Part shown: piece after piece, positions 5,184 to 33,277 of the stretch
Layout of the letters: each line of letters opens with the position of its first letter
How positions within the stretch are numbered: the stretch's first letter is position 1
NCBI GenBank assembly: GCA_016180525.1
Contig: JACPBB010000002.1
Coordinates: 48,824 to 112,823 of the forward strand
DNA: 64,000 nucleotides
DNA from: Parcubacteria group bacterium
GTDB taxonomy: Bacteria > Patescibacteriota > Minisyncoccia > Phycocordibacterales > UBA2135
Direction of reading: 5' to 3'
Program-made: the position numbers and the translations under genes
Notes under the pieces: model-generated
Database searches by the model: none
Told to the model about the DNA's origin: nothing
What the model saw: the letters and a program-made list of their open reading frames with translations, nothing else

Positions 5184-5267
5184 CATACCCCAAAGCCCCC
5201 TCTTTTATGAGGTGGGCTTTTTTGCTACACTCTAACATAGAGTATCCTTGAAAGACGGAGAATATAG

Positions 5268-17467: not shown

Positions 17468-18196
17468 TTAGAATTCCTCAAATTCCGGAATAAGCGTCAC
17501 TACAGCGCTATCTGAAAGCTCGCCTCCTTCGTTTTGGCACGTTAGTATAAATGTGCTTTGCACAGTAATCGGGCCAGAGGGCGCAGAGCCCGAAATGCCG
17601 GTTTGTGAAAATCCATTAGGGCCGGTCACCGTACAGCTGTCAACGTTTGTCGCGGACCATGTAACTGTTGACTGATTGCCAGACTTTACCGAAACCGGAC
17701 TTGCAGAAATGCCAACATCAGGGTTAAGCACCGTTACTCCAACTGATGATTGAAGCGACGACGGAGAGTATGTGCCAGGATTATAAAAGCATACAACAGT
17801 GTACGTCGTGTCTGTTGTGGGAGAAACAACAACCGAACCAGAAATGGCTCCCCCCGTTGAAAAATTAAGACCATCGCAACTCGTCGCTCCGGTGGCATTC
17901 CATTCAATTGTTACGCTACCCCCTTGGTTTATGGTGATAGCCCCCCCGCTTTCACCAGTTTCATTATTTTCTCCAAATAAATTAAGTGCGGGCGGAGCAC
18001 ATTCTCCCGGGGTATGCTCGTATGAGGGACACGACGCGGGAATCGCAAACCCGCCGCTTATCCCTTTAGGAGAAAGAGATGTAACGCCAACCTCCACAGA
18101 TTTTTGCGGCAACATAGTAAGGCCGGCGCCCCAAAATATCCACCCGATAAGAAGTAGCGCGAGCACAGCGACAATAAGTTGAGGAATGTTTTTCAT
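17468..18196 (-). CDS. Membrane-anchored protein with two Ig/PKD-like beta-sandwich repeats
   Basis: Two repeats of (S/T)..W.AT..(T/D)SC...TT(Y/F).(V/L).C; N-terminal TM; C-terminal P.FEEF. Confidence 0.75.
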   Translation of the reverse strand: MKNIPQLIVAVLALLLIGWIFWGAGLTMLPQKSVEVGVTSLSPKGISGGFAIPASCPSYEHTPGECAPPALNLFGENNETGESGGAITINQGGSVTIEWNATGATSCDGLNFSTGGAISGSVVVSPTTDTTYTVVCFYNPGTYSPSSLQSSVGVTVLNPDVGISASPVSVKSGNQSTVTWSATNVDSCTVTGPNGFSQTGISGSAPSGPITVQSTFILTCQNEGGELSDSAVVTLIPEFEEF

Positions 18197-18235
18197 GCTA
18201 ATAATTATATCAAATAGAGCCAAAAACAAAAACAA

Positions 18236-19006
18236 TTATTTGCCGGCGGTTAAATTAATATTAAATCGTATGGCTTCTTTCATTTCATAAACCCCTTGTC
18301 CCGCAACGTTTGGATCGTTTCCGGGGTATGCCCTATGCCAATCTGATTCTGTAAGAGTTTCCGCCCAAAAAAGCGCCTTTTGAAAGTAAATCTTGGCTTT
18401 TTCATTATTGCCTAGGTTCATATGCGCAAGCGCTGTCATATTTAAAAGCCACGGGTTATTCGGAAAATGCGCGAGTCCGCCCTCCGCAGTTTGCCGTGTT
18501 TTTTCATAGTTCCCCTGTTGAAAATAAATCCACGCCAGGTCGTTGTACACAGCCCAGTTATTTCTATCCCATTCAAAAAATTTCAAAAAATTTTTCTCCG
18601 CTTTTTCATATTCTTTCGTATATCCATAAATGAGCCCGCGGATATAATATGAAGACATAAGCGAGTCGCCATGCAGCTCAATTTGTGTATTTATCTTCTC
18701 GAGTGCCCCATCAAAATCCCCGCGCAAAAAATCAATCCGCGCAAGCTGGTGCCACGCATCAGACACGTTCGGATCGACTCCGAGCGCTTTATTAAAATAT
18801 TCTGCCGCCCTGTCTAAGTCATACTTCCCGCTTCCGCCAACATTGAAATAATAATTTCCCTTTTGCACGAATACGTTCGCGTCATTCCCCCGCAAAGAAA
18901 ACATATCAAAAACAACTGCTCCCGTTTTTGTTCGTGTCAACACAAGTACTACAAGCACAAAGATTACGAAAATAAAGATAAGTTTTTTATTCAGCGAGAT
19001 TTGCAT
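18236..19006 (-). CDS. Membrane-anchored TPR protein
   Basis: N-terminal TM and several TPR-type A..Y..KAL..DP repeats. Confidence 0.85.
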   Translation of the reverse strand: MQISLNKKLIFIFVIFVLVVLVLTRTKTGAVVFDMFSLRGNDANVFVQKGNYYFNVGGSGKYDLDRAAEYFNKALGVDPNVSDAWHQLARIDFLRGDFDGALEKINTQIELHGDSLMSSYYIRGLIYGYTKEYEKAEKNFLKFFEWDRNNWAVYNDLAWIYFQQGNYEKTRQTAEGGLAHFPNNPWLLNMTALAHMNLGNNEKAKIYFQKALFWAETLTESDWHRAYPGNDPNVAGQGVYEMKEAIRFNINLTAGK

Positions 19007-19085: not shown

Positions 19086-19129
19086 TAACGATAAAGATCT
19101 TTACAATTCGATTCCACCTTCATGAAAGG

Positions 19130-19723: not shown

Positions 19724-19757
19724 TCAGAAAATTCTCCCGCCACCGTGGCAAAACTCG

Positions 19758-19790
19758 ACAACCCTTGCGAAAGTAGGGGTTGCTTTTTTT
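19758..19790 (+). terminator. Intrinsic terminator
   Basis: CAACCCTTGC-GAAA-GTAGGGGTTGCTTTTTTT. Confidence 0.75.
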
Positions 19791-19813: not shown

Positions 19814-20560
19814 TTAATATCCTCCGACAATAATACTCTCTCCTGAAACGGCGGTTGCCAGATCCGAAGCTAGAAACAAACAAGCGTTCGCAATATCAAC
19901 AGATGTTGGTAATTTTTTTAAAAATGTCTGGTCTGCGATAGAAGAATATTTTTTTGAAAAATTTTCATCATTCTCTTTGTTGACAAAGCCCGGAATAACC
20001 GCGTTTATTCTAATACCGTCCTCGCCGAGTTCTTTTGCAAGTCCTAGCGTCAAAGACAAAAGAGCTCCTTTTGAAACAATATAATGAATCCCCGTCTGAG
20101 AAAAAAGTGGCCTCAAGGCGGCAATTGAGGAGATGTTTATTATAGATGGATTTAATCTTTGTTTTAAAAGCGGAGTCATTTTTTTTATTAAATGAAACAC
20201 TCCAAAAAAATTCGTTCGTAGAGCGTCTTCCCATATTTCATCACTTATATTCTCAAGAGAGTTCCATTGTCGAAGCGCGGCGTTATTTATGAGAATATCA
20301 AGGTGCCCAAAACGATTCTTAATTTGAGAAACAATCTCTTCAACTGCTCCTGCGTCTCCGATATCAGCAGATATGCCAATTACTGCATACCCCTTTCCTT
20401 CAAAAATATCTACCACTTTCTGAACAGTATTTTTCACCCTTCCATTAATAATTATTTTAGCCCCCTGTTCAGCAAATGCTTCGGCAATAACATACCCAAT
20501 TCCACGTGTAGATCCGGTTACCAAAACAACTCTCTCTGTAAAATTTAAATATTGCTTCAT
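19814..20560 (-). CDS. SDR family oxidoreductase (FabG-like)
   Basis: TGSTRGIG, NNAA, NISS, YIVSK catalytic motif, RINAVIPG. Confidence 0.93.
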   Translation of the reverse strand: MKQYLNFTERVVLVTGSTRGIGYVIAEAFAEQGAKIIINGRVKNTVQKVVDIFEGKGYAVIGISADIGDAGAVEEIVSQIKNRFGHLDILINNAALRQWNSLENISDEIWEDALRTNFFGVFHLIKKMTPLLKQRLNPSIINISSIAALRPLFSQTGIHYIVSKGALLSLTLGLAKELGEDGIRINAVIPGFVNKENDENFSKKYSSIADQTFLKKLPTSVDIANACLFLASDLATAVSGESIIVGGY

Positions 20561-20604
20561 GCCCCATTCGTTTTTGAATTAGAATTCATTGAATAAAGTT
20601 TTGT

Positions 20605-22251
20605 CTAATTAGTAGCGGAAATCGCAACAATGTCTGCTAAAAAATCATTGTTGTTAAGAAAACCACTAATAATACCTGTAAGAGAATCCTTTTTTGTAAA
20701 ACAAAAATAATAATAATTTTTATTCCCCGCAGAAAATGTAAAGCTGACACAATTGCCCTTTATAACAAAATTGTCAAGTGATCCATCTTCTGCACCAATA
20801 CTTGATTCAAAAAATCGTCCCGATAACGCTTCTTTGCCGGATGAATGGGAAAAGCTCATTTTAAATGTTCCTGAACTAAATCTCCCCGGACCTTCAGTTC
20901 GTTCCCATGACACGTTCCATGGAGAATTTTGTACAAGAATTTCCGCAAAAGACTTTGAGCCGCTGGGGGTATTTGTTTCTAATTTTAACAAAATCTCAGA
21001 AAGACGGAAGCCACGAGTTGCTCTATTGTTGGCTGAATTTATTTCAAGTGCATTTTTGTACGCAGGTTGTGCTAACTCAAATTCGCCTAGTCTCATATAA
21101 ATATCTCCAAGAACACGATACGGCGCGCTAATTTTGTCCAGCCTTTCGGGGGTATTGTATCCACGAACTTCATATCCTGGAAAGTCTTTAAACGGCTTGT
21201 CTAAATCATGATTAAACTCAACCGCAGAAAGAGCATATTTTTCCGCTTCTTCCATTTTCCCAAGAGCAAGTTTTGCTTCTGCCAAAACATGCAACGCAAA
21301 TACTTTAAAGTATGGGGGCATAAATTCTAAAAATTTTTCATCATTCACCACTCGTTCTAGATGACGCTCTTCTTCTATATAATTATTTTTTGAAAGCGCC
21401 CTCATCCCAATGGTGTAGTTTTTAAACATTTCTTCGGTTTCTTTCATCACGATTCCGCGTGGAGGATATGGTGTCTCTTCTAAATTTTTTATTTTATTTA
21501 ATGCCATTGCTAAATTTTTAGGCTGAATAATAAGATATTGATTCTGGCCACTTGGTGACATTATATTTTGCAATCTTTGAAAGTCTTTAAAACTTAATTC
21601 ATAATTATTTCCAAGCCAATAACTCTGAAATATCAATTTTCCATTGGGTTCGTCAATGCCAATAAGTACTGTCGCGGGATAATAATGAAATGTTGAATTA
21701 AAAGGTTGGCTCTCCGTTAATGGCAGGAGCAAAAAAAGTGGAGTTCTCACTTCTTCATTAATATATTTTTTTACTTCGTTAAGGGTAAGTCGTTCTTTTT
21801 TTACCACGTAATATCCAGTCTCCTGAACATATTTCTCCACACCATCAGTTGAGAAATCAAATGAACCTGACCTTACCAACCTCTCAGTAATTTCCGCGGG
21901 GGTTATCTTTCCCGGATTCCAATATTCTAACACTGAGGCCACCGCCCCGCTTACATCACCTACAATAAAACTATTTTTCCCAATATGATTATGGACACCA
22001 ACATACGGAACTCCTGGAATTGTGTATCTAAACGTTCCTGCGGGTATACGAACAGATTCTGTACCACCAATAACTTCTCTAATTTCTCCTGGCTTTATTA
22101 TTGACTCAAGCGAGGAGGTTTTTAAAGAAAAAAAGTACCAGGTAAAACCTCCCGCAACAAGCAGTAAAAGAACGCTTACCCAAGCAACAATAGTTACTGG
22201 AGTTGCTAATTTATTTTGATCAAAGGCATTCTTTTGATTATTGTCTTCCAT
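20605..22251 (-). CDS. Membrane-anchored C39-peptidase-like + TPR + beta-barrel domain protein
   Basis: TM; IPGVPY...AVASVLEYW...HY...VLIGID...LSF.DF (C39-like); TPR helices; C-terminal domain similar to the 32846-33277 product. Confidence 0.6.
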   Translation of the reverse strand: MEDNNQKNAFDQNKLATPVTIVAWVSVLLLLVAGGFTWYFFSLKTSSLESIIKPGEIREVIGGTESVRIPAGTFRYTIPGVPYVGVHNHIGKNSFIVGDVSGAVASVLEYWNPGKITPAEITERLVRSGSFDFSTDGVEKYVQETGYYVVKKERLTLNEVKKYINEEVRTPLFLLLPLTESQPFNSTFHYYPATVLIGIDEPNGKLIFQSYWLGNNYELSFKDFQRLQNIMSPSGQNQYLIIQPKNLAMALNKIKNLEETPYPPRGIVMKETEEMFKNYTIGMRALSKNNYIEEERHLERVVNDEKFLEFMPPYFKVFALHVLAEAKLALGKMEEAEKYALSAVEFNHDLDKPFKDFPGYEVRGYNTPERLDKISAPYRVLGDIYMRLGEFELAQPAYKNALEINSANNRATRGFRLSEILLKLETNTPSGSKSFAEILVQNSPWNVSWERTEGPGRFSSGTFKMSFSHSSGKEALSGRFFESSIGAEDGSLDNFVIKGNCVSFTFSAGNKNYYYFCFTKKDSLTGIISGFLNNNDFLADIVAISATN

Positions 22252-22308
22252 GTTGTTTATGCTTTTTGTACGCGCTCATCGCCAATTAAGACAAAAAGAG
22301 AAAGCGAC

Positions 22309-23208
22309 TTATGCCGTATTGCCAAACGAAATAAGTTTATTTGCAAAAGACAACATTGCCTCTCTTGCTCCTTTCTTATTTATCGAAACATGGGGCATAA
22401 CTCCTAAGATTTTATGAATGTCAAATTCTTTTTTCTTGTTAAAAATTTCTCCGGCAGTCCAATCTCTGTAATGTGCTCGAAGCAGTAAGTATGCTTCTCT
22501 GCTTTTATCTTCTACTTGCCCTGTAATTTCTATAGATTCGCTGGGCTCAAGCAAAAGGCCGTCACTGTCTTTCATTTTTTTCCATATGTTTTGTGTATTT
22601 CCGATGGCGTGCGCCTTAGATGTGTTTTTTGTTTTTATGTTCTGATGATTAACCCCCTCCGTCTTCTCAATGGCATTTTCTTCAAATACATGAATGTCTT
22701 TAAATTTTGAATCAACTATTAATTCTGTGTTTTTAGGATACACGACCCGAAGTAGGGAAAGATGGTCAATAAAACTTTCTTCGGGCTCAATTTCTTTTAT
22801 CTGAGCAATAAAGTGTCCATCCCTCAGTTGTACATTATTCTGAATTCGATATAGATCCGGCGTAATCTTTCCGCTTTCATACATTTGCATTCCTTCCTTT
22901 TTATTAGTAAACAACGTATTAGGTTTCCCAAACAAAAAATCATTTTCAAATATAAATGTTTTCCCGTTCCACGTAGATATAAAAGGGGTACTGAAACCGC
23001 CGTCATGATCTGCACAACCGCTGTCACAGCCACCGTCGCCGCCACCGTCGGCTCCATCACCGCTAGAGTCAAGTATAAAAAAGGGGGAAAGAAAAACGCC
23101 CATACTCATCTCAAAATACTGAGAGGCAATGAGCATCGCTAGTAAAGAAACTATCTTTATTAGAAATGATTTTTCGATTACGAAACATTTTGTAATTGAA
23201 GTTTGCAT
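22309..23208 (-). CDS. Membrane-anchored protein with Gly/Asp/Cys-rich segment and an (S/C)PF..WNG-type domain (N-half)
   Basis: Hydrophobic N-terminus; DSSGDGADGGGDGGCDSGC; STPFISTWNG...END...PDLY...IKE.E.EES.IDHLSL. Confidence 0.7.
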   Translation of the reverse strand: MQTSITKCFVIEKSFLIKIVSLLAMLIASQYFEMSMGVFLSPFFILDSSGDGADGGGDGGCDSGCADHDGGFSTPFISTWNGKTFIFENDFLFGKPNTLFTNKKEGMQMYESGKITPDLYRIQNNVQLRDGHFIAQIKEIEPEESFIDHLSLLRVVYPKNTELIVDSKFKDIHVFEENAIEKTEGVNHQNIKTKNTSKAHAIGNTQNIWKKMKDSDGLLLEPSESIEITGQVEDKSREAYLLLRAHYRDWTAGEIFNKKKEFDIHKILGVMPHVSINKKGAREAMLSFANKLISFGNTA

Positions 23209-23226
23209 ATATATTTTAAAGATATT

Positions 23227-24018
23227 TTATGACAAAACCGGATTCTTGCCCTTATTTTGATATGTATTAAGCGTGTATAATTTTTTTAAAAATGATTTTG
23301 AGTCCAAATCAAGCCGTCCTGCCCAATCCCCCGCTTCTTTTTGGGCCTCTTCGCTTGCCGCTGTGTACACGCCCCCTGCTTGAAGCATAAAAGCATATTG
23401 TTCGTTAGAGGAAATATTCGGCTTCACTACTTTAAAAGAAACGTCAACGACATCGCCTGGGATTGTGTGGAGATATTCACCAGAGCGTGGAGAATTAAGA
23501 ATCCTTGCATAATCTTTTTCTTCTCTTTTATGATATGCTCTCGCAACTGAAAATTGTTCTGTCTCGTAAGAAAGATTTTTCTTTGGAGAAATGAGTCCGG
23601 CAAAATATACCTTATGTTTTTTTGTCGCAGTTACCCGCAATTGCACATTTCCCCTTTTTTGTATTGCTTCTTTGGGAATAGTAATTGTATTCAATGTCGG
23701 CTGATAATACCGTGGTGAATAAATATCAAGTGGCACAAAAGAAATACCGTTCCAATATTCAATTATTAAAGAGCATCCTCCGCCAGACCCGCCACCGCAT
23801 CCAGGTGGGGGGGGCGGGGGTGGAGTATCGGCGTGTGCCAAGGGAGTACCCTTTGTAGAACCAAATAAAATATTGTGCGCCTTTTGAGAAAGCGTGAGTG
23901 TTTTGCCCTCATCGCCTTGACTCCCAGAGATTGTTTTAAGTACAAAAAGAATAAACAATCCAAATAAAAGCGCTATTCCTTTAAATATTTTTTTTATTTT
24001 ATTTTGCGTGTAAACCAT
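23227..24018 (-). CDS. Membrane-anchored protein with AHA-D-P7-GCGGGSGGGC segment and globular domain (probable C-half)
   Basis: TM; AHADTPPPPPPPGCGGGSGGGCS; ...Y....GD.V.VSF...F.L...G.Y. Confidence 0.7.
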   Translation of the reverse strand: MVYTQNKIKKIFKGIALLFGLFILFVLKTISGSQGDEGKTLTLSQKAHNILFGSTKGTPLAHADTPPPPPPPGCGGGSGGGCSLIIEYWNGISFVPLDIYSPRYYQPTLNTITIPKEAIQKRGNVQLRVTATKKHKVYFAGLISPKKNLSYETEQFSVARAYHKREEKDYARILNSPRSGEYLHTIPGDVVDVSFKVVKPNISSNEQYAFMLQAGGVYTAASEEAQKEAGDWAGRLDLDSKSFLKKLYTLNTYQNKGKNPVLS

Positions 24019-24021
24019 AAT

Positions 24022-24130
24022 GCCTACGAGTAATTATGAAAATTACAAAAATTTATAAAAATAACTATAAAAAGCGCGAATACAACATTATATCATAAAT
24101 ACGACAGAGCCTACGAGCAATTATGAAAAT
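24022..24130. repeat. 22 bp direct repeat pair in the divergent promoter region
   Basis: GCCTACGAGTAATTATGAAAAT (24022-24043) and GCCTACGAGCAATTATGAAAAT (24109-24130), one mismatch. Confidence 0.8.
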
Positions 24131-24175
24131 GATACAAAATTGGTGTATTTATAGTATATTATACATACTATCCTT

Positions 24176-25666
24176 ATGAAAGAGTTTGATGTGGAAGTTA
24201 CCACAAACGTTGTGGAATATTTAAAACAAAGACATTTTCGTCCATATAAGCGAAGCATTTTAAAGTTATGCCTAAAAATGCTTGAAAAATACACGGGAGA
24301 GAATATTACTATACCCGTCTCTCGAGAGCTTCAATTACTTGGAGGAACATCGGTTTATCTTTGGAATTCAATAGAGACGCTCTACGCACTGCAGTCTTTG
24401 GGTATCGTTTCGCATTTCTCAAAAAATATGCACTACCCAGACGAGCCGCGTCTTCACGGATATAGCGCGGCATATTCAACCTCAGCAAATCGTTCACTAA
24501 GTAGAGCAAGCGGGGTTGATTTCTTTGACAAAAAAAAGGCTTTCTTCCGAATGCTTGGCGAATCAGTTGAGCGGCATTTGTGGTCTTGCACAGATTTTTT
24601 TTCAAGAAATCAAATAATGAAACCTTATAAAGAAATTAAAAATAAATCATTGAATATATTTTTACTTGCCGGATTCACGAAAGAACAAAAAAAACAATAT
24701 AGAGAGCTCCAGCTTACCGAAAATACACCACTTGCGTGGATTCCCGCCACATCACTTGTAAGTGAAAAGAAAATATGGTGTCCAACACAACTATTGAGCG
24801 TCCGTTATTTTAGAGAAAATGTGAGAACGCCAAAGAGACCCGCGAAACCAGAGCCAATGCTGCGGTGGTGTGTTACCACAGGTCTTGCAACGGGAAAAAC
24901 ACTAGAGGAAGCAATCGTTGCTGGGATATTGGAGGTAATAGAAAGAGACGCATTTATGATTACCTTTTTAAATAAACTCTCTCCTCCACTCATAGATTTG
25001 GAATATGTCGCAAGCCAAGACAAAGACATAGATACTATTTTGAAAAAATTTAAACGATACAATCTTGAAGTATATATGATCGCGCTTCCCACTGATTTTC
25101 CTGTACACGTTGTGTTGAGCCTCGTTATTGACCCATCGGGACGAGGCCCGGCTACAAGTGTGGGAGCAAGTGCTGATTTTGATTTAAAAAGATGCATCCT
25201 TGACGCATTATCTGAATCTCTCTCAGTAAGATACAATATAAAAAATAAATACAAGGATCCGATTGATTTGCAACATATTGGAAGAGAAGAGAGAATATTA
25301 TATTGGGCAAAAGAAGAAAACGTGCCTGGTCTTGAATTTTTAACAAAAGGGAAAAAAAATAAAGTTGAGTTAAATAAACAACATGTTTCGCAAAACTCAG
25401 AGATTCGTCATGACAAAAAACAACTTGATACACTTAGAGTAGAATTTAAAAAACAAAATCAAGAAGTATGTTTTGTAGAGCTTTCCTCAAAAGAAACCAG
25501 AAAACTTGGCTTTAGAACGGTTTTTGTGGTTGCTCCGGAAATGCAGCCAATGCACCTTGATGAATCAATCCCCTATTTTGGTGGCAAGCGCCTCAAGGAA
25601 GTACCTGAGAAACTGGGATACAAACCAGCGAAAGAATTAAATAAGGAGCCACATCCCTTTCCTTAA
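24176..25666 (+). CDS. YcaO family ATP-dependent cyclodehydratase
   Basis: GESVER, TTGLATG..LEEAI..GILEVIERDA, ALSE, C-terminal PHPFP. Confidence 0.93.
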   Translation: MKEFDVEVTTNVVEYLKQRHFRPYKRSILKLCLKMLEKYTGENITIPVSRELQLLGGTSVYLWNSIETLYALQSLGIVSHFSKNMHYPDEPRLHGYSAAYSTSANRSLSRASGVDFFDKKKAFFRMLGESVERHLWSCTDFFSRNQIMKPYKEIKNKSLNIFLLAGFTKEQKKQYRELQLTENTPLAWIPATSLVSEKKIWCPTQLLSVRYFRENVRTPKRPAKPEPMLRWCVTTGLATGKTLEEAIVAGILEVIERDAFMITFLNKLSPPLIDLEYVASQDKDIDTILKKFKRYNLEVYMIALPTDFPVHVVLSLVIDPSGRGPATSVGASADFDLKRCILDALSESLSVRYNIKNKYKDPIDLQHIGREERILYWAKEENVPGLEFLTKGKKNKVELNKQHVSQNSEIRHDKKQLDTLRVEFKKQNQEVCFVELSSKETRKLGFRTVFVVAPEMQPMHLDESIPYFGGKRLKEVPEKLGYKPAKELNKEPHPFP

Positions 25667-25668
25667 TC

Positions 25669-26415
25669 ATGCTTTCTAAATTATTTCACAAAAAAATCAC
25701 AAATGAACGACCATATACACCAAGAGACCCAAAAGATTGGCCGATTTCATGGCGTACCGTGTATTTTAAAGAATACCCAAGATTTGATAGAGTAATGCTG
25801 CCAATAAATTTTTTAGAGCTGAAAAATTTAAAAGATGTTTTAGAAAAAAGACATTCTACCAGAACGTTTGACATAAAAAAAGAAATAACTCTACAGGAAC
25901 TCTCAACAATGCTTTATTATTCAGCCGGCATAAAAGGGACGCCTGGCAAATATAGAGACAAGCCGCAAATGGAAAAAAATAAATCAAGGCGATTCTATCC
26001 GTCCGGCGGAGAGCGATATCCGCTTGAAGTGTACGTCGCAATAAAGCGAATTTCCGAGATAAACTCTGGAATATACCACTATAACTTGCCCAATCACTCT
26101 CTTGAACAATTGTCAGATAAAGAATGTTTAAGCGAGTTTTATGAAGCACTTGGCGAACCATGGGCAAAAGACGCTGCGGTAGTTTTTATTATAACTGCTG
26201 TCTGGGATAGAAATTTTATAAAATATCAAGACTTCGGTTACAACATAATTCTTACCGAGACGGGACATATGGCTCAAAATCTAATTTTACTTTCAGAGTC
26301 TTTGGATCTACACTATTGTCCGTTTATTGGATTTGATAATAAAAAAATAAATAAAATTTTAGACATTGATGAGGAAAATGAGTCTTCTTTATATATGATT
26401 GCAGGAGGAAAATAG
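25669..26415 (+). CDS. SagB/ThcOx-type FMN-dependent dehydrogenase (nitroreductase fold)
   Basis: RHSTR.F, R.YPSGG.RYPLEVY, GIYHY....H.L, KY...GY.....E.GH.AQN. Confidence 0.92.
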   Translation: MLSKLFHKKITNERPYTPRDPKDWPISWRTVYFKEYPRFDRVMLPINFLELKNLKDVLEKRHSTRTFDIKKEITLQELSTMLYYSAGIKGTPGKYRDKPQMEKNKSRRFYPSGGERYPLEVYVAIKRISEINSGIYHYNLPNHSLEQLSDKECLSEFYEALGEPWAKDAAVVFIITAVWDRNFIKYQDFGYNIILTETGHMAQNLILLSESLDLHYCPFIGFDNKKINKILDIDEENESSLYMIAGGK

Positions 26416-26457
26416 TATTATTGATTCTTTAGAGAAATTTTATGTGCTATTAATTGT

Positions 26458-27483
26458 ATGTTTTTTATAAAAAACCTTTCACAAAACAACACAGAGCATG
26501 AAACCGTATTACAGGATCAGCTCTTGGCAACGCACTACTTAATTACTCTCACACACACAACACTTGAGCGTCTGGGCCTTTTTGATGTCTTGAGAAAAAA
26601 AACAGAGCCAGCAGCAATTGATGAGCTATCAAAAATAATAAAAGTAAGAACTGACATTTTAGAGGCTTGTATTAATTTCTTGTGGTCTACGACCAATTAT
26701 CTAGAAAAAAACGGGCAAAAAATTATTTTGAAAAATAATCCGCCAAAATGGTTTTGGATAGCAACGTATAAACCTGTATTTGACAACTTAGAAAGTTTAT
26801 TAAAAGGAACAAAAAAATATGGAAATGATGTTGTTCGTGATGGATATTATTTACAAAAAATGTCTATTACAATCAATAATCCGGTTGAAAATTATATAGT
26901 CCAACAGCTTCAAGAAATTAAAGAAAAAAGTATCCTTGTCGATTTGGGCTGCGGCCCAGGGACACTTCTTTCACGGGTAAGCGCTGCAAATCCATTAATA
27001 GAGGGGCTTGGCATAGATGTTGACCCAATCATAACCGACATTGCTCAAAAAAACGTAATGCGTTCGCGTCGTCCAATAAAAATTATCACGGCAGACGTGA
27101 CAAAAATACATTTCTGGAAAAAACACATTCCATCAAATGTAAATCTTATATTCTCAGCAAATTCCATACTCCATGAACTCTTACGAGACGGAGAAGAAAG
27201 GTTCATCTCTTTTTTAAAAACACTCAAGGGCGCGTTTCCGGGCTCTCGATTTTTTGTAACAGAAATTAACGCGCTTTCGCCTCAAGAAATAAAAAATATG
27301 CGGAGCAACGATTACAAATTTTTTATGGCAATGTTTATGTTCACCCATCCGCTTACTGAACAGGGATTGCCACGATCCAAAAAAGAATGGCTTTCTTTTT
27401 TTAAAAAAAGCCAGTGGTCCGTCATGCGAACAGAACAACCTAAAAATAATGACGCGCGAATTATCTATGACTGTCTCTTATGA
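26458..27483 (+). CDS. O/N-methyltransferase with N-terminal dimerisation/wHTH region
   Basis: LVDLGCGPG, GIDVD, SILHE, PRSKKEW. Confidence 0.88.
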   Translation: MFFIKNLSQNNTEHETVLQDQLLATHYLITLTHTTLERLGLFDVLRKKTEPAAIDELSKIIKVRTDILEACINFLWSTTNYLEKNGQKIILKNNPPKWFWIATYKPVFDNLESLLKGTKKYGNDVVRDGYYLQKMSITINNPVENYIVQQLQEIKEKSILVDLGCGPGTLLSRVSAANPLIEGLGIDVDPIITDIAQKNVMRSRRPIKIITADVTKIHFWKKHIPSNVNLIFSANSILHELLRDGEERFISFLKTLKGAFPGSRFFVTEINALSPQEIKNMRSNDYKFFMAMFMFTHPLTEQGLPRSKKEWLSFFKKSQWSVMRTEQPKNNDARIIYDCLL

Positions 27484-28580
27484 ATCCATTCTTATTAAAT
27501 CTCCAAATACTTTCATCAATTTGGGACGTTATCAGTAAACAAGATTTTTATCTTGGTCCAACAGTTGAAAGATTTGACACGCTGCTTCGAGATTTTACTG
27601 GAAGCAAACACGCGCTCGGCGTCTCAAGCGGAACAGACGCTCTCATTTTGTCACTGAAAGCCCTCGGTGTCGGGCCTGGGGATGAGATTATTGTCCCAGC
27701 GATTAGTTTTTTCTCAACAGCAAGTGCTGTGTCCTGGGTTGGCGCACGTCCTGTTTTTGTTGATATAGATATAAAAACATATACAATAAATCCAAATTTG
27801 ATAGAGCGAGCAATTACCCAAAGAACAAAAGGAGTTATTCCTGTACACCTTAACGGCGGAGCGGCCGAAATGGAATCCATAATGACGCTCGCTAAAAAAC
27901 ATGGAATTTATGTAATCGTGGATGCGTCACAGTCCCTTGGGGTATATTATAAAAACCTTCCAATGAGCGCGTGGGGCGATTTAGTATGTCTTAGTTTTAG
28001 TTTTAACAAGAAAGAACTTGGCGGTTATGGTAATGCCGGAGCAGTTCTTACTAATAACAATGATATTTATAAAAAAATATCACTGTTTCGTGCATATGGA
28101 ACTTCATCAAAAAAAGAAATGTACTCAAACCATGTCGTAGCAAGCGGTTCTTATCGTATTGACTCATTGCAGGCAGCAATACTCAGCTGTAAAATTCCAT
28201 ACTGGAATGAATATATACGGCGACGCCGAGAAAAATATATTTTATACAAGAAATTACTTAAGAATGTTCCGCGCATTATCTTGCCCGATGAGGGGCAAAA
28301 TTGCCTACACAGCGGATATAGATTCATTTTTCTGACTCCGCACAGAGATGAATTAAGAAAGTTTTTACGACATTCTCAGATACGAAGTCCGAATTATTAT
28401 GATATTCCCTTACCATTTTTCCCTGCATTTAATTCACTCGAATATTCAAGCGGGGACTTTCCGGTTTCAGAAAAATTTGCACGTGAATCAATCAGTTTGC
28501 CGACCGACAATGCAGTAACAAAAAAAAGCGCGGAGTGGGTTATAAATTTAGTAAAGACATTTTTAGAAAAACAAAAATAA
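27480..28580 (+). CDS. DegT/DnrJ/EryC1/StrS PLP-dependent aminotransferase
   Basis: SSGTDAL, GVGPGDE+IVP, PVFVDID, IPVHL.G, DASQSLG, SF..NKKELGGYG.AGA, R+DS+QAA. Confidence 0.92.
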   Translation: MNPFLLNLQILSSIWDVISKQDFYLGPTVERFDTLLRDFTGSKHALGVSSGTDALILSLKALGVGPGDEIIVPAISFFSTASAVSWVGARPVFVDIDIKTYTINPNLIERAITQRTKGVIPVHLNGGAAEMESIMTLAKKHGIYVIVDASQSLGVYYKNLPMSAWGDLVCLSFSFNKKELGGYGNAGAVLTNNNDIYKKISLFRAYGTSSKKEMYSNHVVASGSYRIDSLQAAILSCKIPYWNEYIRRRREKYILYKKLLKNVPRIILPDEGQNCLHSGYRFIFLTPHRDELRKFLRHSQIRSPNYYDIPLPFFPAFNSLEYSSGDFPVSEKFARESISLPTDNAVTKKSAEWVINLVKTFLEKQK

Positions 28581-28604
28581 AAAATTCTTGTTTAATTCAT
28601 TTCT

Positions 28605-31600
28605 ATGGAAGAAAGGCTAAAAAAAATTATAAAAAGTGAAGTTTTCATAACCAAAAAGGAGGCGACAATTGTTTCACAACAGGGCAGGAAATTGGATTGG
28701 ATTTTTGATTTTAGAAGAATATTACTTGTTCCGGAATATATAGATTTAATAGCTGAGATTTTTTGGGAAAAATATAAAGATAAATATCCCTTTCAAGTAT
28801 GCGGTCTTGAGACTGCCGCCATTCCTCTTGTGACCGCTATTGTTATGAAAAGCGTTCAAAAAGAAAAGCCTATCAATGGATTTTTTATTAGAAAATCAAG
28901 AAAAAAATACGGGCTTACGCGATTGGTAGAGGGAAGTATAAATAAAGAAAAAATTATTATAGTTGATGATCTTATAAGTTATGGAGACGCTGTTAAAAAA
29001 CAAATACAAATCCTTGATGAATTAGGGAAAAAAGTTTCTGAAGTGTTTGTCATCATGCATTTTAAACAATTGAAATATTATGATTTTCTGAAAAACCGCG
29101 AAATTATTTTGACTTCTCTTTTCCCACTTACGGATTTTGGACCACCGTTTCAAAAAATAGCCTCTGATAAAAAATATCTCGGCGACGCATTCATCAGAAA
29201 GTGGTATTTCAAAAGTGAAAATCCAAATTATTTTTATGTTATCCCTAAATCAGCTCCTGCTATAGACGGAGATAAAATTTATTTTGGAAGCGATAGCGGA
29301 TATTTTTGGGCGCTTAATCAAAATGACGGCTCTGTCTCATGGAAATACAAAGTTGGCTTAGGCTCAAGAGGAAAAAGTGTGTTTTCTTCTCCGGCGGTTT
29401 ATGACAATACTGTCTATTTCGGAGCATATGATGGAAACGTTTACGCGCTTGACACAAAAACCGGAAAAAGAAAGTGGGTATTTATGGAAGCTGACTGGGT
29501 CGGCTCATCTCCAGCACTTGCGCCGGACTTAGGACTTCTTTTTATAGGTCTTCAATTCGGTCTGTGGAATAAAAAAGGGGGTATTGCCGCGCTTGATTTG
29601 AAAACGGGAGAGAAAAAATGGGAACATCTTACTTCAGAATACACACCCTGCTCTCCCACATATTCAAAAGAAAAAAAAATAGTTGCTATCGGTAGCAATG
29701 ACTCCGCAGTATATTTATGTGACGCAAAAAATGGAAAACTTTTGTGGAAATTCCAAACAAAGGGAGAAATAAAATCTTCTTTGGTTTTTGATGAAAAAAG
29801 AAATACAGTAATTTTTGGTAATTTTGAAGGGAAATTATATGTCGTTGATATCAAAACGGGGCATGAAGTATTTTCATATCAAGCAGAATTTGGTATATAT
29901 TCAACTCCCGTTATATATAAAGATAATATATATTTTTCGTCTTTAGATAAGCACCTATACAGCATAAATCTTGACACACAAAAACTTAATTGGAAATTTC
30001 AAACTGGCGGAAGAATTCTCGCTTCGCCTATTATTATTAATGATAAATTATATATTGGCTCAAATGATGAAAGATTATATGAAATAAATCTCGACACAGG
30101 AGAAATGCTTGCGTTTTTCCAAACAACAGAGCGCATTACAAACAAAATCGCATACAACAAAGGAACAAAACAATTTTTTCTTTCAACGTTCGCAAACGAA
30201 ATATATTGTTTGAAGAGAATACAAAAAAATGATAAGAAATATGTTCAATTCAAACTACCCTCTTTGCCTACTGTGGAGGCATTCGATAAAAACGAAAAAG
30301 AATTTGCACTTGCGTTAAGCAGAAAAACGCTTGCATTATTTTTGCATGCAAAAAACAAAAACAACAAACTAGATCGTAATATACAAATACCTCAAAAACT
30401 TCTTAGCAAATCTTTTGTTGGTGTAAGTTTTTGGATGTATGGTTCTTTGCGAGGGTGCCAAATTGTTCGCGGCAAAAAAATATACGATGCAATAATAGAA
30501 GCAACAAAAAGAGCCGCGCAAGATATGAGATTTAAATCGCTTAACATAATTGATCTGGATGTCATTAGAATCCAAATATCTATAATTTCTAATAAGTGGG
30601 ATGAAATAGACAAAAAGAGAATAAAAAATTTAGAAATTAATCCTATGGCTGGTTATTTTTTAAGCAGCAAAGAAGGTATTGGTTGGTTTTTGCCTGAAGT
30701 TTTTAACATTGTTCCGTTTGCAAACATGGAACAACTAGTGTTCCAATTGGCAATCAAAAAGGCAAAAATTTCTCCAGAATTGCTTGCCGACAAGGAGACT
30801 ACAATATATTCTTTCAGCACCGATGATTTTATGGAGGGGAAAAACGGCAACATATTAGATCTAGAGGGCCCAATAGTAAAAACAGAAATAGAAACAACAG
30901 AGAAAAAAGTAGTTGGGGCGGCGAAGAGAGCCGCCGATTGGATGTTGCCGCTTATGGATAAAGACGGAGGGCTTGTCACAATACTAAACCCCTACGGAAA
31001 AATAATTAGTCATTATGATTGGGCAAGAACAATTTTCTCTGGGTGGGTCCTTGCAGAGTTCGGAAGAATGTTTAATCAAGAATCACATATACAAGCGGCA
31101 AGAAACAATTTTGAATATAATAAAAAAAATATTTTTGACGATTCTGTTCACATTAAAAATAAGCTTCTCGTTTTATCATATCTTGGACAGCAAGCGCTGT
31201 CATTAAGTTATTTGCCTGAGGCGCTATTGTGCGCTGATGCCATCGTCACACAATTGCAAAACGAGCCTTTTCACCCACTAACTTTCTCTCAAATAGGAAG
31301 TTTTTTGGGAACAATGGCTCTTCGTGGCAATAAAAAATATTTGAATTATGCCCTCCAATGCGCAACCGCGGTAAAAAACTCCTTCGATGAACGAGGGACG
31401 AACGGTATACCAAGAAGTATTGCCGAATATGCTGAACTTGTAAATACATTGAGCATTCTTTACGGGTGCACAGGAGAGAAAAAACATGCTGATGCTTCAA
31501 AAGAAATGGCTTTGTGGATTTTAAAAAATCAATTAGAAAGCGGCGCTTTTAAAAATACAGAGAGTTCTAATTTTTCATATACGCGAGGCACAAGCAAGGC

Positions 31601-31853
31601 AGTGGAAGTTCTTTCGTTATTTAATCCGTCATCTTTTCCGCAAGTGAAGCAGGAAAATTATAGAAATCAAGTATTGAGAGCTTTCAAATGGCTTCTTTCA
31701 ATGCAATATAACGAACTAAATTCATTTTTTATTGACTCTCAAGAAGTTAAAAAATACCTTGGAGGATTTAGGCATGATTATTTAAACACCGAAGCGTGGA
31801 TAGACTCGGCAGCGCATTTTATTTTAGCAATCACTAGATTTTATAAACCATGA
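28605..31853 (+). CDS. Multidomain protein: PyrE-like phosphoribosyltransferase + PQQ-type beta-propeller + AMMECR1-like + alpha-helical toroid
   Basis: GLETAAIPL...IRKSRKKYG...IIVDDLISYG; repeated SSP...YFG..DG..YAL...TG..KW; VSF...G.LRGC...A..D.RF; C-terminal Q...G.F helical repeats. Confidence 0.78.
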   Translation: MEERLKKIIKSEVFITKKEATIVSQQGRKLDWIFDFRRILLVPEYIDLIAEIFWEKYKDKYPFQVCGLETAAIPLVTAIVMKSVQKEKPINGFFIRKSRKKYGLTRLVEGSINKEKIIIVDDLISYGDAVKKQIQILDELGKKVSEVFVIMHFKQLKYYDFLKNREIILTSLFPLTDFGPPFQKIASDKKYLGDAFIRKWYFKSENPNYFYVIPKSAPAIDGDKIYFGSDSGYFWALNQNDGSVSWKYKVGLGSRGKSVFSSPAVYDNTVYFGAYDGNVYALDTKTGKRKWVFMEADWVGSSPALAPDLGLLFIGLQFGLWNKKGGIAALDLKTGEKKWEHLTSEYTPCSPTYSKEKKIVAIGSNDSAVYLCDAKNGKLLWKFQTKGEIKSSLVFDEKRNTVIFGNFEGKLYVVDIKTGHEVFSYQAEFGIYSTPVIYKDNIYFSSLDKHLYSINLDTQKLNWKFQTGGRILASPIIINDKLYIGSNDERLYEINLDTGEMLAFFQTTERITNKIAYNKGTKQFFLSTFANEIYCLKRIQKNDKKYVQFKLPSLPTVEAFDKNEKEFALALSRKTLALFLHAKNKNNKLDRNIQIPQKLLSKSFVGVSFWMYGSLRGCQIVRGKKIYDAIIEATKRAAQDMRFKSLNIIDLDVIRIQISIISNKWDEIDKKRIKNLEINPMAGYFLSSKEGIGWFLPEVFNIVPFANMEQLVFQLAIKKAKISPELLADKETTIYSFSTDDFMEGKNGNILDLEGPIVKTEIETTEKKVVGAAKRAADWMLPLMDKDGGLVTILNPYGKIISHYDWARTIFSGWVLAEFGRMFNQESHIQAARNNFEYNKKNIFDDSVHIKNKLLVLSYLGQQALSLSYLPEALLCADAIVTQLQNEPFHPLTFSQIGSFLGTMALRGNKKYLNYALQCATAVKNSFDERGTNGIPRSIAEYAELVNTLSILYGCTGEKKHADASKEMALWILKNQLESGAFKNTESSNFSYTRGTSKAVEVLSLFNPSSFPQVKQENYRNQVLRAFKWLLSMQYNELNSFFIDSQEVKKYLGGFRHDYLNTEAWIDSAAHFILAITRFYKP

Positions 31854-32596
31854 GCAGTAAACAAGAAACAATTGAGCAAATACGAAAAAAATTGGACTCT
31901 CTGTCTGTTCCAAAAAAAGAGTTGGAGCGCCTCTATGCCATGCTGGACATTTCATTGCTCCCTGTGGCTCAACAACCAAAACGGCCCGCCTTACAAGTGC
32001 CACATTACTTATATATGCCTGGACTTAAGGCGCGACCATTTCATGATAAAGGTCAATTTGCTTTTGTGACACATTTGGAAAATGCTTATGCAGACATTAA
32101 AAGAGAATTTGATTTAGTGAATAAACAAGAATTGGTACAAGAGCATCGAGAAACAAAGCAAAATGTTATCCGCGGCGCGTGGGGTGAGTTCAATATTTAT
32201 AATTTAGGCAAACGTTCCGCTTTGAGCGCACTGGCTCCCCGTACCCTTGAGGTTCTACAAACCATTCCTGGTACAACTGAGATGGGCTTTGTTTATTTTT
32301 CGGTCTTATACCCAAAAACTTTTCTTCGCGCACACTTTGCTCCTTTTAATTTTAGATTAAGAATTCACCTACCCTTATATGTACCCCCTATGTGCGGAAT
32401 GCAAGTGGCATGGGAAGAGTATGCGTGGCAAGAAGGTATCTGTGTTGTTTTTGATGACTCTTTTCAGCATGCGGCGTGGAATAAGAGTAATTTAATACGC
32501 GTGGTGCTCCTCGTAGATTTTTGGCACCCTGATGTAACAAAAATTGAGCGTCAAGCGCTTTCTGAAATTTTAAAATCTAAAATTTTAAAGTTTTGA
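31850..32596 (+). CDS. Aspartyl/asparaginyl beta-hydroxylase family (Fe/2OG)
   Basis: FS.L.P....AH..P.N.RLR.HLPL.VP, W.EG...VFDDSF.H.AWN....RVVL+VD.WHP. Confidence 0.92.
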   Translation: MSSKQETIEQIRKKLDSLSVPKKELERLYAMLDISLLPVAQQPKRPALQVPHYLYMPGLKARPFHDKGQFAFVTHLENAYADIKREFDLVNKQELVQEHRETKQNVIRGAWGEFNIYNLGKRSALSALAPRTLEVLQTIPGTTEMGFVYFSVLYPKTFLRAHFAPFNFRLRIHLPLYVPPMCGMQVAWEEYAWQEGICVVFDDSFQHAAWNKSNLIRVVLLVDFWHPDVTKIERQALSEILKSKILKF

Positions 32597-32762
32597 AGAG
32601 ACCTAAATTTATAGATGTGTTTTAATTAATACGTGTGGTGTACGCCATTGGTCTAAAATAAAGGGGCAATATTCGCTTCCATGGTTGAGATTCGCTCATC
32701 TCGAACACGAAATATGCCATTATATTAAGGATAATTTGACTCTGAAAAAATTACGAAAGTAC

Positions 32763-32790
32763 TTGACAAAAGTTTAAATATGTGTATAAT
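32763..32790 (+). promoter_or_regulatory. Sigma70 promoter
   Basis: TTGACA-16 nt-TATAAT. Confidence 0.65.
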
Positions 32791-32845
32791 ATAAATAGTT
32801 TACTGACTTCTGTGTTTAACCCGAGCTCCCGAAAGGAAAAGCGCC

Positions 32846-33277
32846 ATGCACTCGTTTTTCAAGACACTGATCGCCTCAGCGGCGATCGCTCTCTTCGCCT
32901 TCATCGGCGGCTACACGATGAATGCAGTCGCCAGCACCATGGACGAGACTGCCTTCAAACAGGTTCTGGTCAACAGCTCCCCATACCATGCCAAATGGGA
33001 GACCCCGTGGGCAAGCGGTACCCAGGACATGAGCTTCGCTCTGGACGCCAACGGCAATCTTACCGGCAAGCTCTTCAACCTGAGCAACGCCGGCAGGGAC
33101 GCAACGCTCAAGAACATCGTCATCGAGGGCAACCGAGTTCGTTTCGTCTCGGCCGATACCGGGTCGCAGTTCAAGTACGAACTCAACAAAGACGGTACCC
33201 TCTCAGGCACAATCGAGGGTACGGGCCCCCGCGGGAGCTGGACGGCAAGCGTGAAGGCCGTTCCTGACAAACACTAA
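32846..33277 (+). CDS. Secreted small beta-barrel-like protein
   Basis: Signal peptide ending AVA; beta-rich; GC-rich codons; similar to the C-terminus of 20605-22251. Confidence 0.8.
   Translation: MHSFFKTLIASAAIALFAFIGGYTMNAVASTMDETAFKQVLVNSSPYHAKWETPWASGTQDMSFALDANGNLTGKLFNLSNAGRDATLKNIVIEGNRVRFVSADTGSQFKYELNKDGTLSGTIEGTGPRGSWTASVKAVPDKH

Follow-up and report, generated by a model that had tools for sequence, protein, structure and literature searches.

We describe an azole-peptide gene cluster from a tiny-genome groundwater bacterium of the Parcubacteria group (GTDB Patescibacteriota; Minisyncoccia; Phycocordibacterales; UBA2135). It is probably a CPR-type azole cluster, in which a YcaO cyclodehydratase and a SagB-type dehydrogenase azolate Cys, Ser and Thr residues in the Gly-rich segments of two proteins, ORF A and ORF B, the swapped halves of a single domain into which they are predicted to reassemble. 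The window, that is the whole stretch of 64,000 nt analysed, covers positions 48,824 to 112,823 of the forward strand of JACPBB010000002.1 (GCA_016180525.1). The features discussed are collected in Table 1.

Table 1. Features of the cluster and its neighbours, in window coordinates
Feature	Position	Strand	Remarks
Surface-protein gene	17468..18235	-	255 aa, no Pfam match; recurrent left neighbour of cassette
Membrane-anchored TPR protein	18236..19006	-	Pfam TPR
Short-chain dehydrogenase/reductase (SDR)	19814-20560	-	PF13561 E 1e-52
TM - inactive C39-like - TPR - beta domain protein	20605-22251	-	Catalytic Cys/His positions replaced
ORF B (whole)	22309-23208	-	Leader, variable segment, N-terminal half-domain
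ORF B N-terminal half of jelly-roll-like domain	22309..22989	-	Starts Thr74 of S-T-P-F
ORF B variable Gly/Asp/Ser/Cys segment, candidate core 2	22990..23070	-	27 aa, 2 Cys
ORF B leader, 'type II'	23071..23208	-	Hydrophobic stretch ending L-S-P-F-F-I-L
ORF A (whole)	23227-24018	-	Hydrophobic leader, A-x-A-D, Gly/Cys core, C-terminal half-domain
ORF A C-terminal half of domain	23227..23772	-	Starts Ser83; T132-x-x-H135
ORF A variable Pro/Gly/Cys segment, candidate core 1	23773..23829	-	Residues 64-82
ORF A leader, 'type I'	23830..24018	-	Basic N-terminus and hydrophobic helix; linker of ~30 aa up to A-H-A, next residue D
Two 33-nt direct repeats	24022..24141		Divergent intergenic region; 85% alike, 87 nt apart
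Stand-alone azoline-type YcaO cyclodehydratase	24176-25666	+	PF02624 E 5e-48 (above cut-off), C-terminal PxPxP
SagB-type FMN azoline dehydrogenase	25669-26415	+	TIGR03605 147.8 vs cut-off 78.4
SAM methyltransferase	26458-27483	+	Distant from ApyS
DegT-family PLP aminotransferase	27480-28580	+	PF01041 E 3e-92; catalytic Lys region intact
PRTase/propeller/AMMECR1/GH88-like helical fusion	28605-31853	+	PRTase-propeller residues 1-540; AMMECR1-helical residues ~550-1082
Asp/Asn beta-hydroxylase-like enzyme	31850-32596	+	PF05118 E 5e-39
Small secreted protein	32846..33277	+	Homologous to C-terminal domain of C39-like-TPR protein

The ORF positions and strands given in the initial annotation all held, and all of the genes are real. 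The plus strand operon is as tight as was claimed, with gaps of 2, 42, -4, 24 and -4 nt between the genes for YcaO, SagB, the methyltransferase, DegT, the fusion protein and the hydroxylase, and the divergent minus strand operon (A, B, C39-like-TPR, SDR) has gaps of 18, 57 and 44 nt. The two direct repeats between the operons are possible regulatory sites. The GC content of 19814-32596 is 0.367, against 0.427 and 0.410 in the flanks. The conserved cassette reaches further left than first proposed, to the TPR gene and the surface-protein gene. No gene accompanies the precursor gene more constantly than that of the TPR protein, which has a homologue in 32 of 84 related loci (58% in G402, a genome of the same family), and homologues of the surface protein adjoin the precursor cassette in many loci (60% identity in G402). 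The small secreted protein and the C-terminal domain of the C39-like-TPR protein are homologous (32% over 111 aa, pairwise E 1e-12). The small protein stands alone, and its gene has a perfect promoter-like site of its own at 32763-32790.

The YcaO scores 217.9 bits against TIGR03604, just under the cut-off of 219.25, and keeps its ATP-binding residues (E129, E132, G236, E253 and R257, invariant in 18 rows). Its model matches LynD (4v1v) with Z 35.8 and rmsd 3.0 over 399 aligned residues. The PxPxP tail that had been noted is indeed there, as PHPFP at 492-496, and PxP is conserved among the YcaOs compared; the accessible part of PMC7136475 describes a PxP tail as a motif of azoline-forming YcaOs. 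The predicted FMN dehydrogenase partner was likewise borne out, scoring well above the TIGR03605 cut-off. It is related to CyaGox and McbC and carries K185-Y186, which we take to be the functional Lys-Tyr of such dehydrogenases.

The partners reported as missing were not found. The genome, which is 97% complete, gave no match to ThiF (PF00899) for an E1-like protein or to PqqD (PF05402) for an RRE, although a diverged RRE could escape such a search, and of the ORFs in the window four showed Walker-A in a crude motif search, none of them ABC-transporter-like. The YcaO, at 496 aa, has only ~60 additional N-terminal residues; these are helical, and the model shows no three-strand/three-helix unit at the N-terminus. 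Of the features by which LAP/TOMM clusters are recognised, a YcaO with ATP-binding residues, the PxP tail, an FMN dehydrogenase and a leader plus core precursor are present and no E1/RRE was found. This does not rule out membership, because the available text of PMC7136475 has the partner accompanying YcaO 'in most cases'. Assigning the pair, as it stands here with neither E1/RRE partner nor ABC exporter found, to the azole type is supported.

The earlier statement that the cluster has no precursor is correct in form only, since the N-terminus of ORF A belongs to a widespread family of free precursors. Its leader has the architecture of 12 free or Hint-fused precursors, with A63 and D64 in at least 90% of 13 rows; the likeness is weak in sequence (pairwise E 0.006 and 0.03), which counts against our explanation. 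Candidate core 1 is hypervariable between conserved flanks in eight homologues, and its content of only 2 Cys, 1 Ser and 1 Thr also counts against. In ORF B homologues a conserved hydrophobic-Pro motif precedes the variable segment. Candidate core 2 is hypervariable too, with pLDDT ~25 in the fused model, and one homologue (P0014) has no variable segment at all, a further point against. The Gly/Cys segments of these membrane-targeted proteins remain the likely substrates, as originally suggested. Acidic, hypervariable cores beside surface-protein genes would suit a function at the surface or in recognition more readily than one as a diffusible antibiotic.

Neighbourhood comparison of relatives confirms that the cluster genes co-occur in other genomes. 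YcaO was found in 19/401 phylum genomes and 23/401 class genomes, and in 15 of the 17 class genomes with a stand-alone YcaO a leader plus core gene lies within about 3 kb of it, its product being free, Hint-fused or fused to the A/B domain; in L034 a true Hint domain stands in place of the A/B domain behind the same leader and core. The orthologous locus in G402 encodes YcaO, a free 108-aa precursor, C39-like-TPR, SDR, TPR and surface proteins, and the precursor's leader ends T-P-R-A-H-A-D, followed by poly-Pro and Gly as in ORF A. The four YcaOs nearest to the one studied here (quick tree, SH-aLRT 100) adjoin free precursors in three cases (L002, L134, L138) and a fused A/B protein in the fourth (L051). 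The A/B domain occurs together with YcaO in 5 of 9 domain-bearing class genomes, against a YcaO in 17 of the other 391 (Fisher 3e-5, with related genomes not independent), and YcaO or SagB is found in 24/40 metagenome loci, redundant contigs included. At least one Cys is present in the variable segments of 19/23 fused proteins adjacent to YcaO or SagB and in 0/8 without them; L075 (4 Cys, no YcaO in its 6-kb locus) was left out of this count because it is split. Four YcaO-adjacent proteins without Cys in their segments, and the occurrence of the domain without YcaO in 4/10 domain-bearing genomes searched, count against our explanation. So do Cys-rich cores lacking a YcaO, namely that of L075 and those of the free precursors L160 (6 Cys) and L162 (4 Cys), which lie beside radical SAM genes in genomes with no YcaO match.

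It is also conceivable, if improbable, that the Gly/Cys stretches are flexible linkers, that YcaO and SagB act elsewhere (on another peptide, or in backbone amidine or thioamide chemistry), and that the linkage marks a hotspot for surface-related genes. Accessory genes do turn over freely at this site, and the precursor cassette is found without YcaO in L160-L162, G765, G569 and G660; CPR YcaOs are also read as thioamidating in the accessible part of PMC12153355. Against this, no further ORF resembling a Gly/Cys precursor turned up in a crude scan of the genome, both SagB and the PxP tail speak for azoles, Cys content in the fused proteins tracks the presence of YcaO, and there is no TfuA-like match among the cluster's own ORFs (15 ORFs scanned).

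Sequence comparison shows ORF A and ORF B to be the two halves, in swapped order, of one domain, predicted to be jelly-roll-like, that is usually a single chain of ~500 aa, the ORF B half being homologous to the N-half of such proteins. The split and the swap are a new feature of this cluster. The domain has about 986 relatives at 50% clustering and no family in Pfam, where A and B had no match and the fused proteins scanned (P0015, P0023) gave no Hint match. Prediction of the A+B complex gave a score of 0.70 (best control 0.00), with agreement between runs in at least 72% of contacts and a partner pLDDT of at least 75; among solved pairs 116/157 came up to this mark, among mismatched pairs 2/215. 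The halves are thus predicted to reassemble into one domain. A fold search with the domain model returned jelly-roll/CBM-like structures (Z 8.6, rmsd 3.5, 119 aligned), and its top 50 listed jelly-roll domains instead of any Hint fold.

Both halves start with Ser, Thr or Cys, in 174/174 and 178/178 aligned rows, and never with Asp, Asn or Ala; in ORF B the residue ahead of the invariant Pro is T, C or S in 174/174. The Thr-x-x-His of half A is T/S in 188/193 rows and H in 189/193. These starts and this motif hint at Hint-like self-cleavage. We tentatively propose that A+B may be a self-cleaving jelly-roll that converged on the Hint strategy, tolerates splitting and circular permutation and, at the cell surface, frees two peptides carrying azoles; as such it would be a release domain of general use in CPR bacteria, interchangeable with Hint and used also behind His-Xaa-Ser precursors and surface proteins. 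The internal hydrophobic helix between the halves of the fused ~500-aa forms poses a topology problem for our explanation, and the fusion of the domain behind unrelated surface proteins also counts against it. There is some chance, which we would not put high, that the azole segments instead stay on a membrane-tethered surface protein A+B, in which the Ser/Thr/Cys and Thr-x-x-His residues are structural or bind metal. A jelly-roll/CBM-like fold is typical of binding domains, the invariant acidic residues D88, D116, E137, E139 and E141 could bind metal, many surface proteins end in the same domain, and the A-x-A site of ORF A follows the hydrophobic helix only after ~32 residues, an unusual distance for signal peptidase I and a point against our own scheme. 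However, the same leader and core occur as free peptides and Hint fusions, so the core can work without the A/B domain, and at both starts only Ser, Thr and Cys replace one another.

The label of the C39-like-TPR protein had to be corrected: in this protein and those of L002 and L132 the catalytic Cys position reads D-V-S-G-A and the His is replaced. As a working C39 peptidase it was rejected for want of Cys and His, and its Peptidase_C70 score is only 16.5 versus 19. In position it corresponds to a TM-helical/propeller protein of ~360-400 aa found after the precursor in relatives, and homologues stand before or after precursors in L002, L132, L160, L161 and L171.

The genome search gave no match to SRP54 or FtsY, and found SecA, signal peptidase I and TatC; export after modification is therefore feasible. 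Since no SRP was found, we envisage that the hydrophobic leaders escape capture during translation, which would leave time for modification in the cytoplasm. The stand-alone YcaO, directed by the leader rather than by an E1/RRE partner, would act with SagB to turn Cys, Ser and Thr of the Gly-rich segments into thiazoles and oxazoles. Export would follow via SecA. The type I leader would be cut at A-H-A/D by signal peptidase I or another protease, invoked because the C39-like neighbour is catalytically dead. Outside the cell, the two halves would fold together as a single jelly-roll-like domain displaying the modified segments, and possibly cutting them off at the Ser/Thr/Cys starting each half; membrane-anchored TPR proteins may bind or present the product.

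The remaining genes were judged by their recurrence over the 84 related loci. Homologues of the methyltransferase, rejected as ApyS (NF050150) at 69.8 bits against a cut-off of 400, occur in 8/84, all near YcaO. DegT is found in 16/84, mostly among sugar genes (glycosyltransferases, epimerases), including loci without YcaO. The two parts of the fusion are separate genes in relatives, and none of 400 genomes has both in one match: the PRTase-propeller half occurs in eight other genomes, one with YcaO (Fisher 0.37), and in 2/84 loci, the AMMECR1-helical half in three other genomes, all with YcaO, and in 3/84 loci. The SDR is a patchy accessory (7/84, 43-47% in five). The hydroxylase has no homologue in the 84 loci, its nearest relatives (53-55%) lying on short contigs. 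With the hydroxylase absent from all 84 and the accessories mostly patchy, the methylation, hydroxylation, amino-sugar or ribosyl chemistry first proposed for the peptide is not supported. That the entire plus strand operon makes a single azole product carrying many further groups (methyl, hydroxyl, amino-sugar and ribosyl) is accordingly unlikely, even given the tight gene coupling, the restriction of the methyltransferase and AMMECR1-helical homologues to YcaO company, the PRTase-propeller genes adjoining precursors or genes of the cassette in L067, L138, L160, L161 and L162, and the Asp-rich core of ORF B. Most loci lack each accessory, DegT travels with glycosyltransferases, and the PRTase-propeller rarely accompanies YcaO.

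Among known systems, the microcin B17 synthetase McbABCD shares a YcaO with a PxP tail (model Z 31.3 to 6gri_D) and a related dehydrogenase, McbC, and the Gly-rich cores, with their Gly-Cys and Gly-Ser steps, presumably resemble that of microcin B17. In contrast to McbABCD, there is here no E1-like McbB/RRE, ABC exporter or pentapeptide immunity gene, and the acidic cores lie between a membrane-type leader and a folded domain. The best matches of the YcaO domain, the cyanobactin heterocyclases LynD, TruD and MusD (sequence E 1e-47 to 1e-49, structure Z 33-36), are E1/RRE-YcaO fusions of ~780 aa. The N-terminal cleavage centre of Hint/intein domains, as far as PMC4031507 is accessible, shares the first-position Cys/Ser/Thr and a Thr-x-x-His turn (B:7, B:10). 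The A/B fold is predicted to be jelly-roll-like and the fused proteins gave no Pfam Hint match; a resemblance, if real, would be convergent. Bufferins and other Sec-signal RiPPs, according to the available portion of PMC12452194, have Cys-containing precursors, some of them long or domain-fused, in which export signals replace classical leaders, and are a precedent for modification in the cytoplasm before export via Sec; they differ in the modifying machinery, which consists of MNIO enzymes and an RRE-containing partner where we find YcaO/SagB.

The claim of an unprecedented system was not borne out. The cluster type is not new, because clusters of YcaO with an adjoining nitroreductase/SagB gene in small CPR genomes have been published: Sharrar et al. 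2020 (PMC7298704, accessible part) report 110 LAP clusters from 93 genomes, with 51 Parcubacteria among them. One cluster has an 84-aa putative precursor; a Microgenomates cluster described there has a peptidase and a free precursor, and the portion available makes no mention of hydrophobic A-x-A-D leaders, folded-domain fusion, a split precursor or the present accessory set.

The substrates and export route of these CPR clusters are not described in the accessible parts of the literature surveyed, and the locus names a testable substrate family with a membrane-type leader, A-x-A-D and an acidic Gly/Cys core. It also offers a YcaO apparently working without its usual partner, and the failure to find an SRP in the genome gives a reason why export can wait for modification. 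If A+B self-cleaves, its fold would be new among autoprocessing domains, and this naturally split protein might be useful in protein engineering; if it does not, azoles on a surface protein would be an unusual modification bearing on the recognition between episymbiont and host.

All ten ORFs of the initial annotation were found, on the right strands and with family matches as described in profile searches, and its two divergent operons are indeed closely packed, with 157 nt between them; this divergent intergenic, or promoter, region contains two direct repeats of 33 nt that are 85% alike. The cluster block has a GC content of 0.367, against 0.427 and 0.410 in the flanks, and the genome (946 kb, 97% complete) has a single YcaO. 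This protein retains the conserved Glu and Arg residues and carries PHPFP at its C-terminus. Its model (pLDDT 86) matches LynD, MusD, TruD and McbD from residue ∼60 onward, with Z of 31–36, the first 60 residues being helical and unmatched in the structure comparison. The SagB scores over the TIGR03605 cut-off and is kin to CyaGox and McbC; it has Lys-Tyr at K185-Y186. The best reading of the two enzymes is an azole-forming pair. The E1-like/RRE partner, noted earlier as absent, gave no match in ThiF and PqqD searches of the whole genome. The cluster is LAP/TOMM-like, having the enzymes and precursor of that class without the usual E1/RRE partner, and azole formation is predicted.

Positions of features in the window and in the loci compared
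Sequence	Position	Strand	Feature
Window	17468-18235	-	Surface-protein gene
Window	18236-19006	-	TPR gene
Window	19057-19085		Perfect sigma-70-like site upstream of 19130-19723
Window	19130-19723		Small secreted protein
Window	20605-22251	-	C39-like-TPR gene
Window	22309-23208	-	ORF B
Window	23227-24018	-	ORF A
Window	24022-24141		Direct repeat pair
Window	32763-32790		Perfect sigma-70-like site upstream of 32846-33277
Window	32846-33277		Small secreted protein
G000 (window's genome), C1 (L146)	19076-19762		TatC
L034 (G211)	5576-7064		Tandem Hint-fused precursors
L056	4764-6208		YcaO split into two ORFs
L102	11520-12956		YcaO split into two ORFs
L104 (G699)	419-7272		His-Xaa-Ser system
L134	6529-8366		Surface-protein homologue
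L162	4627-7200		B12-dependent radical SAM-propeller fusion, beside a precursor and PRT-propeller

ORF A has eight homologues of common layout: a hydrophobic leader running to A-x-A-D, a hypervariable Gly/Ser/Cys/Asp segment and then a conserved C-terminal domain. Elsewhere, leader and segment form a free ORF of 70–130 aa adjoining YcaO (L002, L056, L129-L132, L134, L135, L137 and L138). The orthologous locus of a same-family genome runs YcaO, free 108-aa precursor, C39-like-TPR, methyltransferase-like ORF, SDR, further genes, TPR and surface protein. L034 lies at the chromosomal site that the cassette occupies in the window; its two tandem precursors, with an identical leader and Cys-rich core, both continue into a diverged Hint domain and adjoin SagB and YcaO. 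Since sequence similarity among the leaders is weak, the precursor-family call rests on architecture and position: HMMs built from the leaders of fused proteins barely recover the free precursors (L002 at 8.5 bits), which were identified by composition and position, and the same search of the window's genome gave no further precursor. The A/B cores resemble that of microcin B17 in being Gly-rich with Gly-Cys/Gly-Ser steps. The type II leader of ORF B was considered as a lipoprotein signal and rejected, the Cys after it not being constant.

YcaO occurs in 23 class genomes, six of which have only long frames (647–787 aa); the four of these that were fetched are all YcaO–SagB fusions without the cassette. 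A leader and core gene lies within ∼3 kb in 15 of the other 17, the exceptions being G520, which shows none, and G620, where the contig ends. Conversely, the cassette stands without YcaO in L160-L162, alongside radical SAM or AMP-ligase genes, and YcaO/SagB is therefore only one of its tailoring options. Its constant part is the precursor, a membrane-anchored helical or propeller protein, the TPR protein and the surface protein. The L162 fusion adjoins a 70-aa precursor and a PRT-propeller gene, in a genome without a YcaO match.

Several other arrangements were seen. YcaO–SagB fusions of 580–770 aa without a precursor cassette occur at L024, L025, L035, L038 and L140-L143. In the phylum, L026 and L028-L031 hold a separate YcaO type with Cys-rich ORFs of 47–58 aa and C39 or S9 peptidases that look active, nearer the published CPR LAP cluster. 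A single-sequence search of genome contigs for YcaO relatives gave L002 alone, and the YcaO tree was a quick one only; the L002 contig, labelled Bdellovibrionales, has a CPR-type YcaO, precursor and C39-like-TPR, and may be mis-binned or transferred. Surface-protein homologues (at L134, and P0047 and P0165) carry long Tyr-x-Gln-x-x-Tyr repeats behind a leader and are possibly another modified-peptide class; some members of the A/B domain family have repeats of a similar kind in their variable segments. Several related cassettes also hold small secreted ORFs like the two in the window. Promoter-like sites overall are at chance level (44 versus 45.5).

The accessory genes are less constant. Homologues in 84 loci numbered eight for the methyltransferase, 16 for DegT, seven for the SDR, two for the PRT-propeller, three for the AMMECR1-helical protein and none for the hydroxylase; loci chosen for the PRT-propeller gene were added later, outside this count. 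As for the earlier condition that the genes co-occur in other genomes, YcaO and its leader and core gene do so, and the accessories only patchily. The 1082-aa fusion corresponds to two genes found apart elsewhere. Its AMMECR1-helical half occurs in three of 400 class genomes, all three with YcaO, and an AMMECR1-related step on the peptide is plausible; its PRT-propeller half occurs in eight of 400, one with YcaO, and several adjoin precursors. DegT is mostly accompanied by glycosyltransferases, epimerases and nucleotidyltransferases, and no solved relatives of the methyltransferase were found. As for the added chemistry first proposed, methylation is plausible, whereas ribosyl, amino-sugar and hydroxyl additions to the peptide are suggested by gene adjacency only.

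The domain shared by ORFs A and B is present in 10 of 401 class genomes, the window's included. YcaO is found in 5/9 of the other domain-bearing genomes versus 17/391 without the domain (Fisher 3e-5, kin not being independent), always within ∼3.5 kb in the five. Among 40 metagenome loci, many of which are redundant or short, 24 have YcaO or SagB. Of 23 fused proteins adjacent to YcaO/SagB, 19 have Cys in their variable segments, as do none of eight others, three of the latter having been checked at genome level. Six rows were left out of this count: duplicates (L047, L071, L062), other fusions (L082, L104) and a split protein (L075), which with 4 Cys runs counter to the trend. Some free precursors from genomes without YcaO are also Cys-rich (L160, L162).

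Most relatives of ORF B are ∼500 aa long, with the B domain first and the A domain second; in front of each half stand a leader-like stretch and then a variable segment. The two leader types exchange positions between clades, and P0144 is a circularly permuted single chain. A frameshift or assembly error was rejected as the origin of the A/B split, the same split recurring in four other protein pairs or halves (HYT27_03600/03605 and HYW58_02435/02440 among them). The A/B region was matched without differences in long contigs of four DNA runs from one study, possibly the source and so not independent support; no holder of the sequence was listed among RNA data. A search of representatives clustered at 50% gave 986 relatives with E≤0.001. 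The named relatives of ORFs A and B belong to Parcubacteria and Kaiserbacteria, which suggests a Parcubacteria-type host. Pfam has no family for the domain, and a first metagenome scan with alignment A1 gave no matches.

The fused-protein model (pLDDT 74) is a jelly-roll/CBM-like sandwich across both halves. Its match by fold (model residues 175–401, Z 8.6, rmsd 3.5, 119 aligned) is middling and says nothing of function; the VIA Z of ∼8 covers residues 172–400 only. Foldseek gave nothing at E≤0.001, and apart from a weak UnbV_ASPIC lead the ESM Atlas yielded just Bacteroidota/Acidobacteriota clusters without names. Assembly is predicted for the A and B of the window, scoring 0.70 versus 0.00 for the best control, with contact agreement of at least 72% and partner pLDDT of at least 75. 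This mark was attained by 116/157 solved complexes and 2/215 mismatches, counts that apply only roughly because the analysis used its own alignment. The fold search turned up no solved structure of a relative that the predictor might have memorised to reach this mark. P0175 carries a Hint domain within its jelly-roll, at the internal site where other members have helix and core.

Both junctions begin with a potential nucleophile. The residue preceding the invariant Pro of half B is Thr in 134, Cys in 34 and Ser in 6 of 174 rows, and half A starts with Ser in 151 and Cys in 27 of 178 aligned rows; its T/S-x-x-H has T/S in 188/193 and H in 189/193. Recounts independent of the first columns agreed in 170/170 for half B, with eight rows unmatched (four truncated, four visibly Cys/Thr), and, among insert-bearing chains, in 160/161 for half A, where the single mismatch is misregistered by one. 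Of the 23 half-A rows that lack a partner half B, 19 have Ser/Cys and four do not. At the remaining x-Pro-aromatic sites of these proteins, Ser/Thr/Cys is found in ∼21%. As the positions are homologous, these start residues amount to one observation. In inteins the nucleophile is Cys, Ser or Thr, working with Thr B:7 and His B:10 (PMC4031507), and in other loci the place of the A/B domain is taken by Hint or by nothing. At L104, a His-Xaa-Ser system (HxsB and HxsD over cut-off, and HxsC-like) has an HxsA3-like precursor fused to the same jelly-roll domain, and the domain also follows several surface proteins. On such circumstantial grounds, self-cleavage by A and B may be suggested tentatively, though we think it less likely than not; a structural role for the conserved Ser/Thr/Cys and T/S-x-x-H is possible.

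A genome search gave no match for SRP54/FtsY, while SecA and signal peptidase I are present, and post-translational Sec export following cytoplasmic modification is therefore feasible; TatC is also present. Bufferins offer a precedent for this order (PMC12452194), and a literature search found nothing on SRP loss in CPR. Caveats for such export are that A-H-A lies ∼32 residues past the hydrophobic helix and that fused forms, with their internal helix, raise a problem of topology. A role as leader peptidase was rejected for the C39-like neighbour: the catalytic Cys and His of the C39 consensus are absent in three homologues. Without them, a membrane-anchored protein that binds rather than cleaves is the likelier reading.

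CPR LAP clusters have been published, and YcaO, present in 19/401 phylum and 23/401 class genomes, is not rare in CPR bacteria, in agreement with Sharrar et al. (PMC7298704). Within a literature covering few subscription papers, no description was found of the leader, the A/B domain or the Hint-fused precursor, nor of a jelly-roll domain that is split and permutable and has a nucleophile at both of its junctions; the supplementary cluster tables of Sharrar et al. might list such loci. On balance we favour a CPR-type azole-peptide cluster in which YcaO/SagB would modify the A and B segments and the two halves are predicted to reassemble. The cluster itself is real, and its new element is this two-part, permutable domain.
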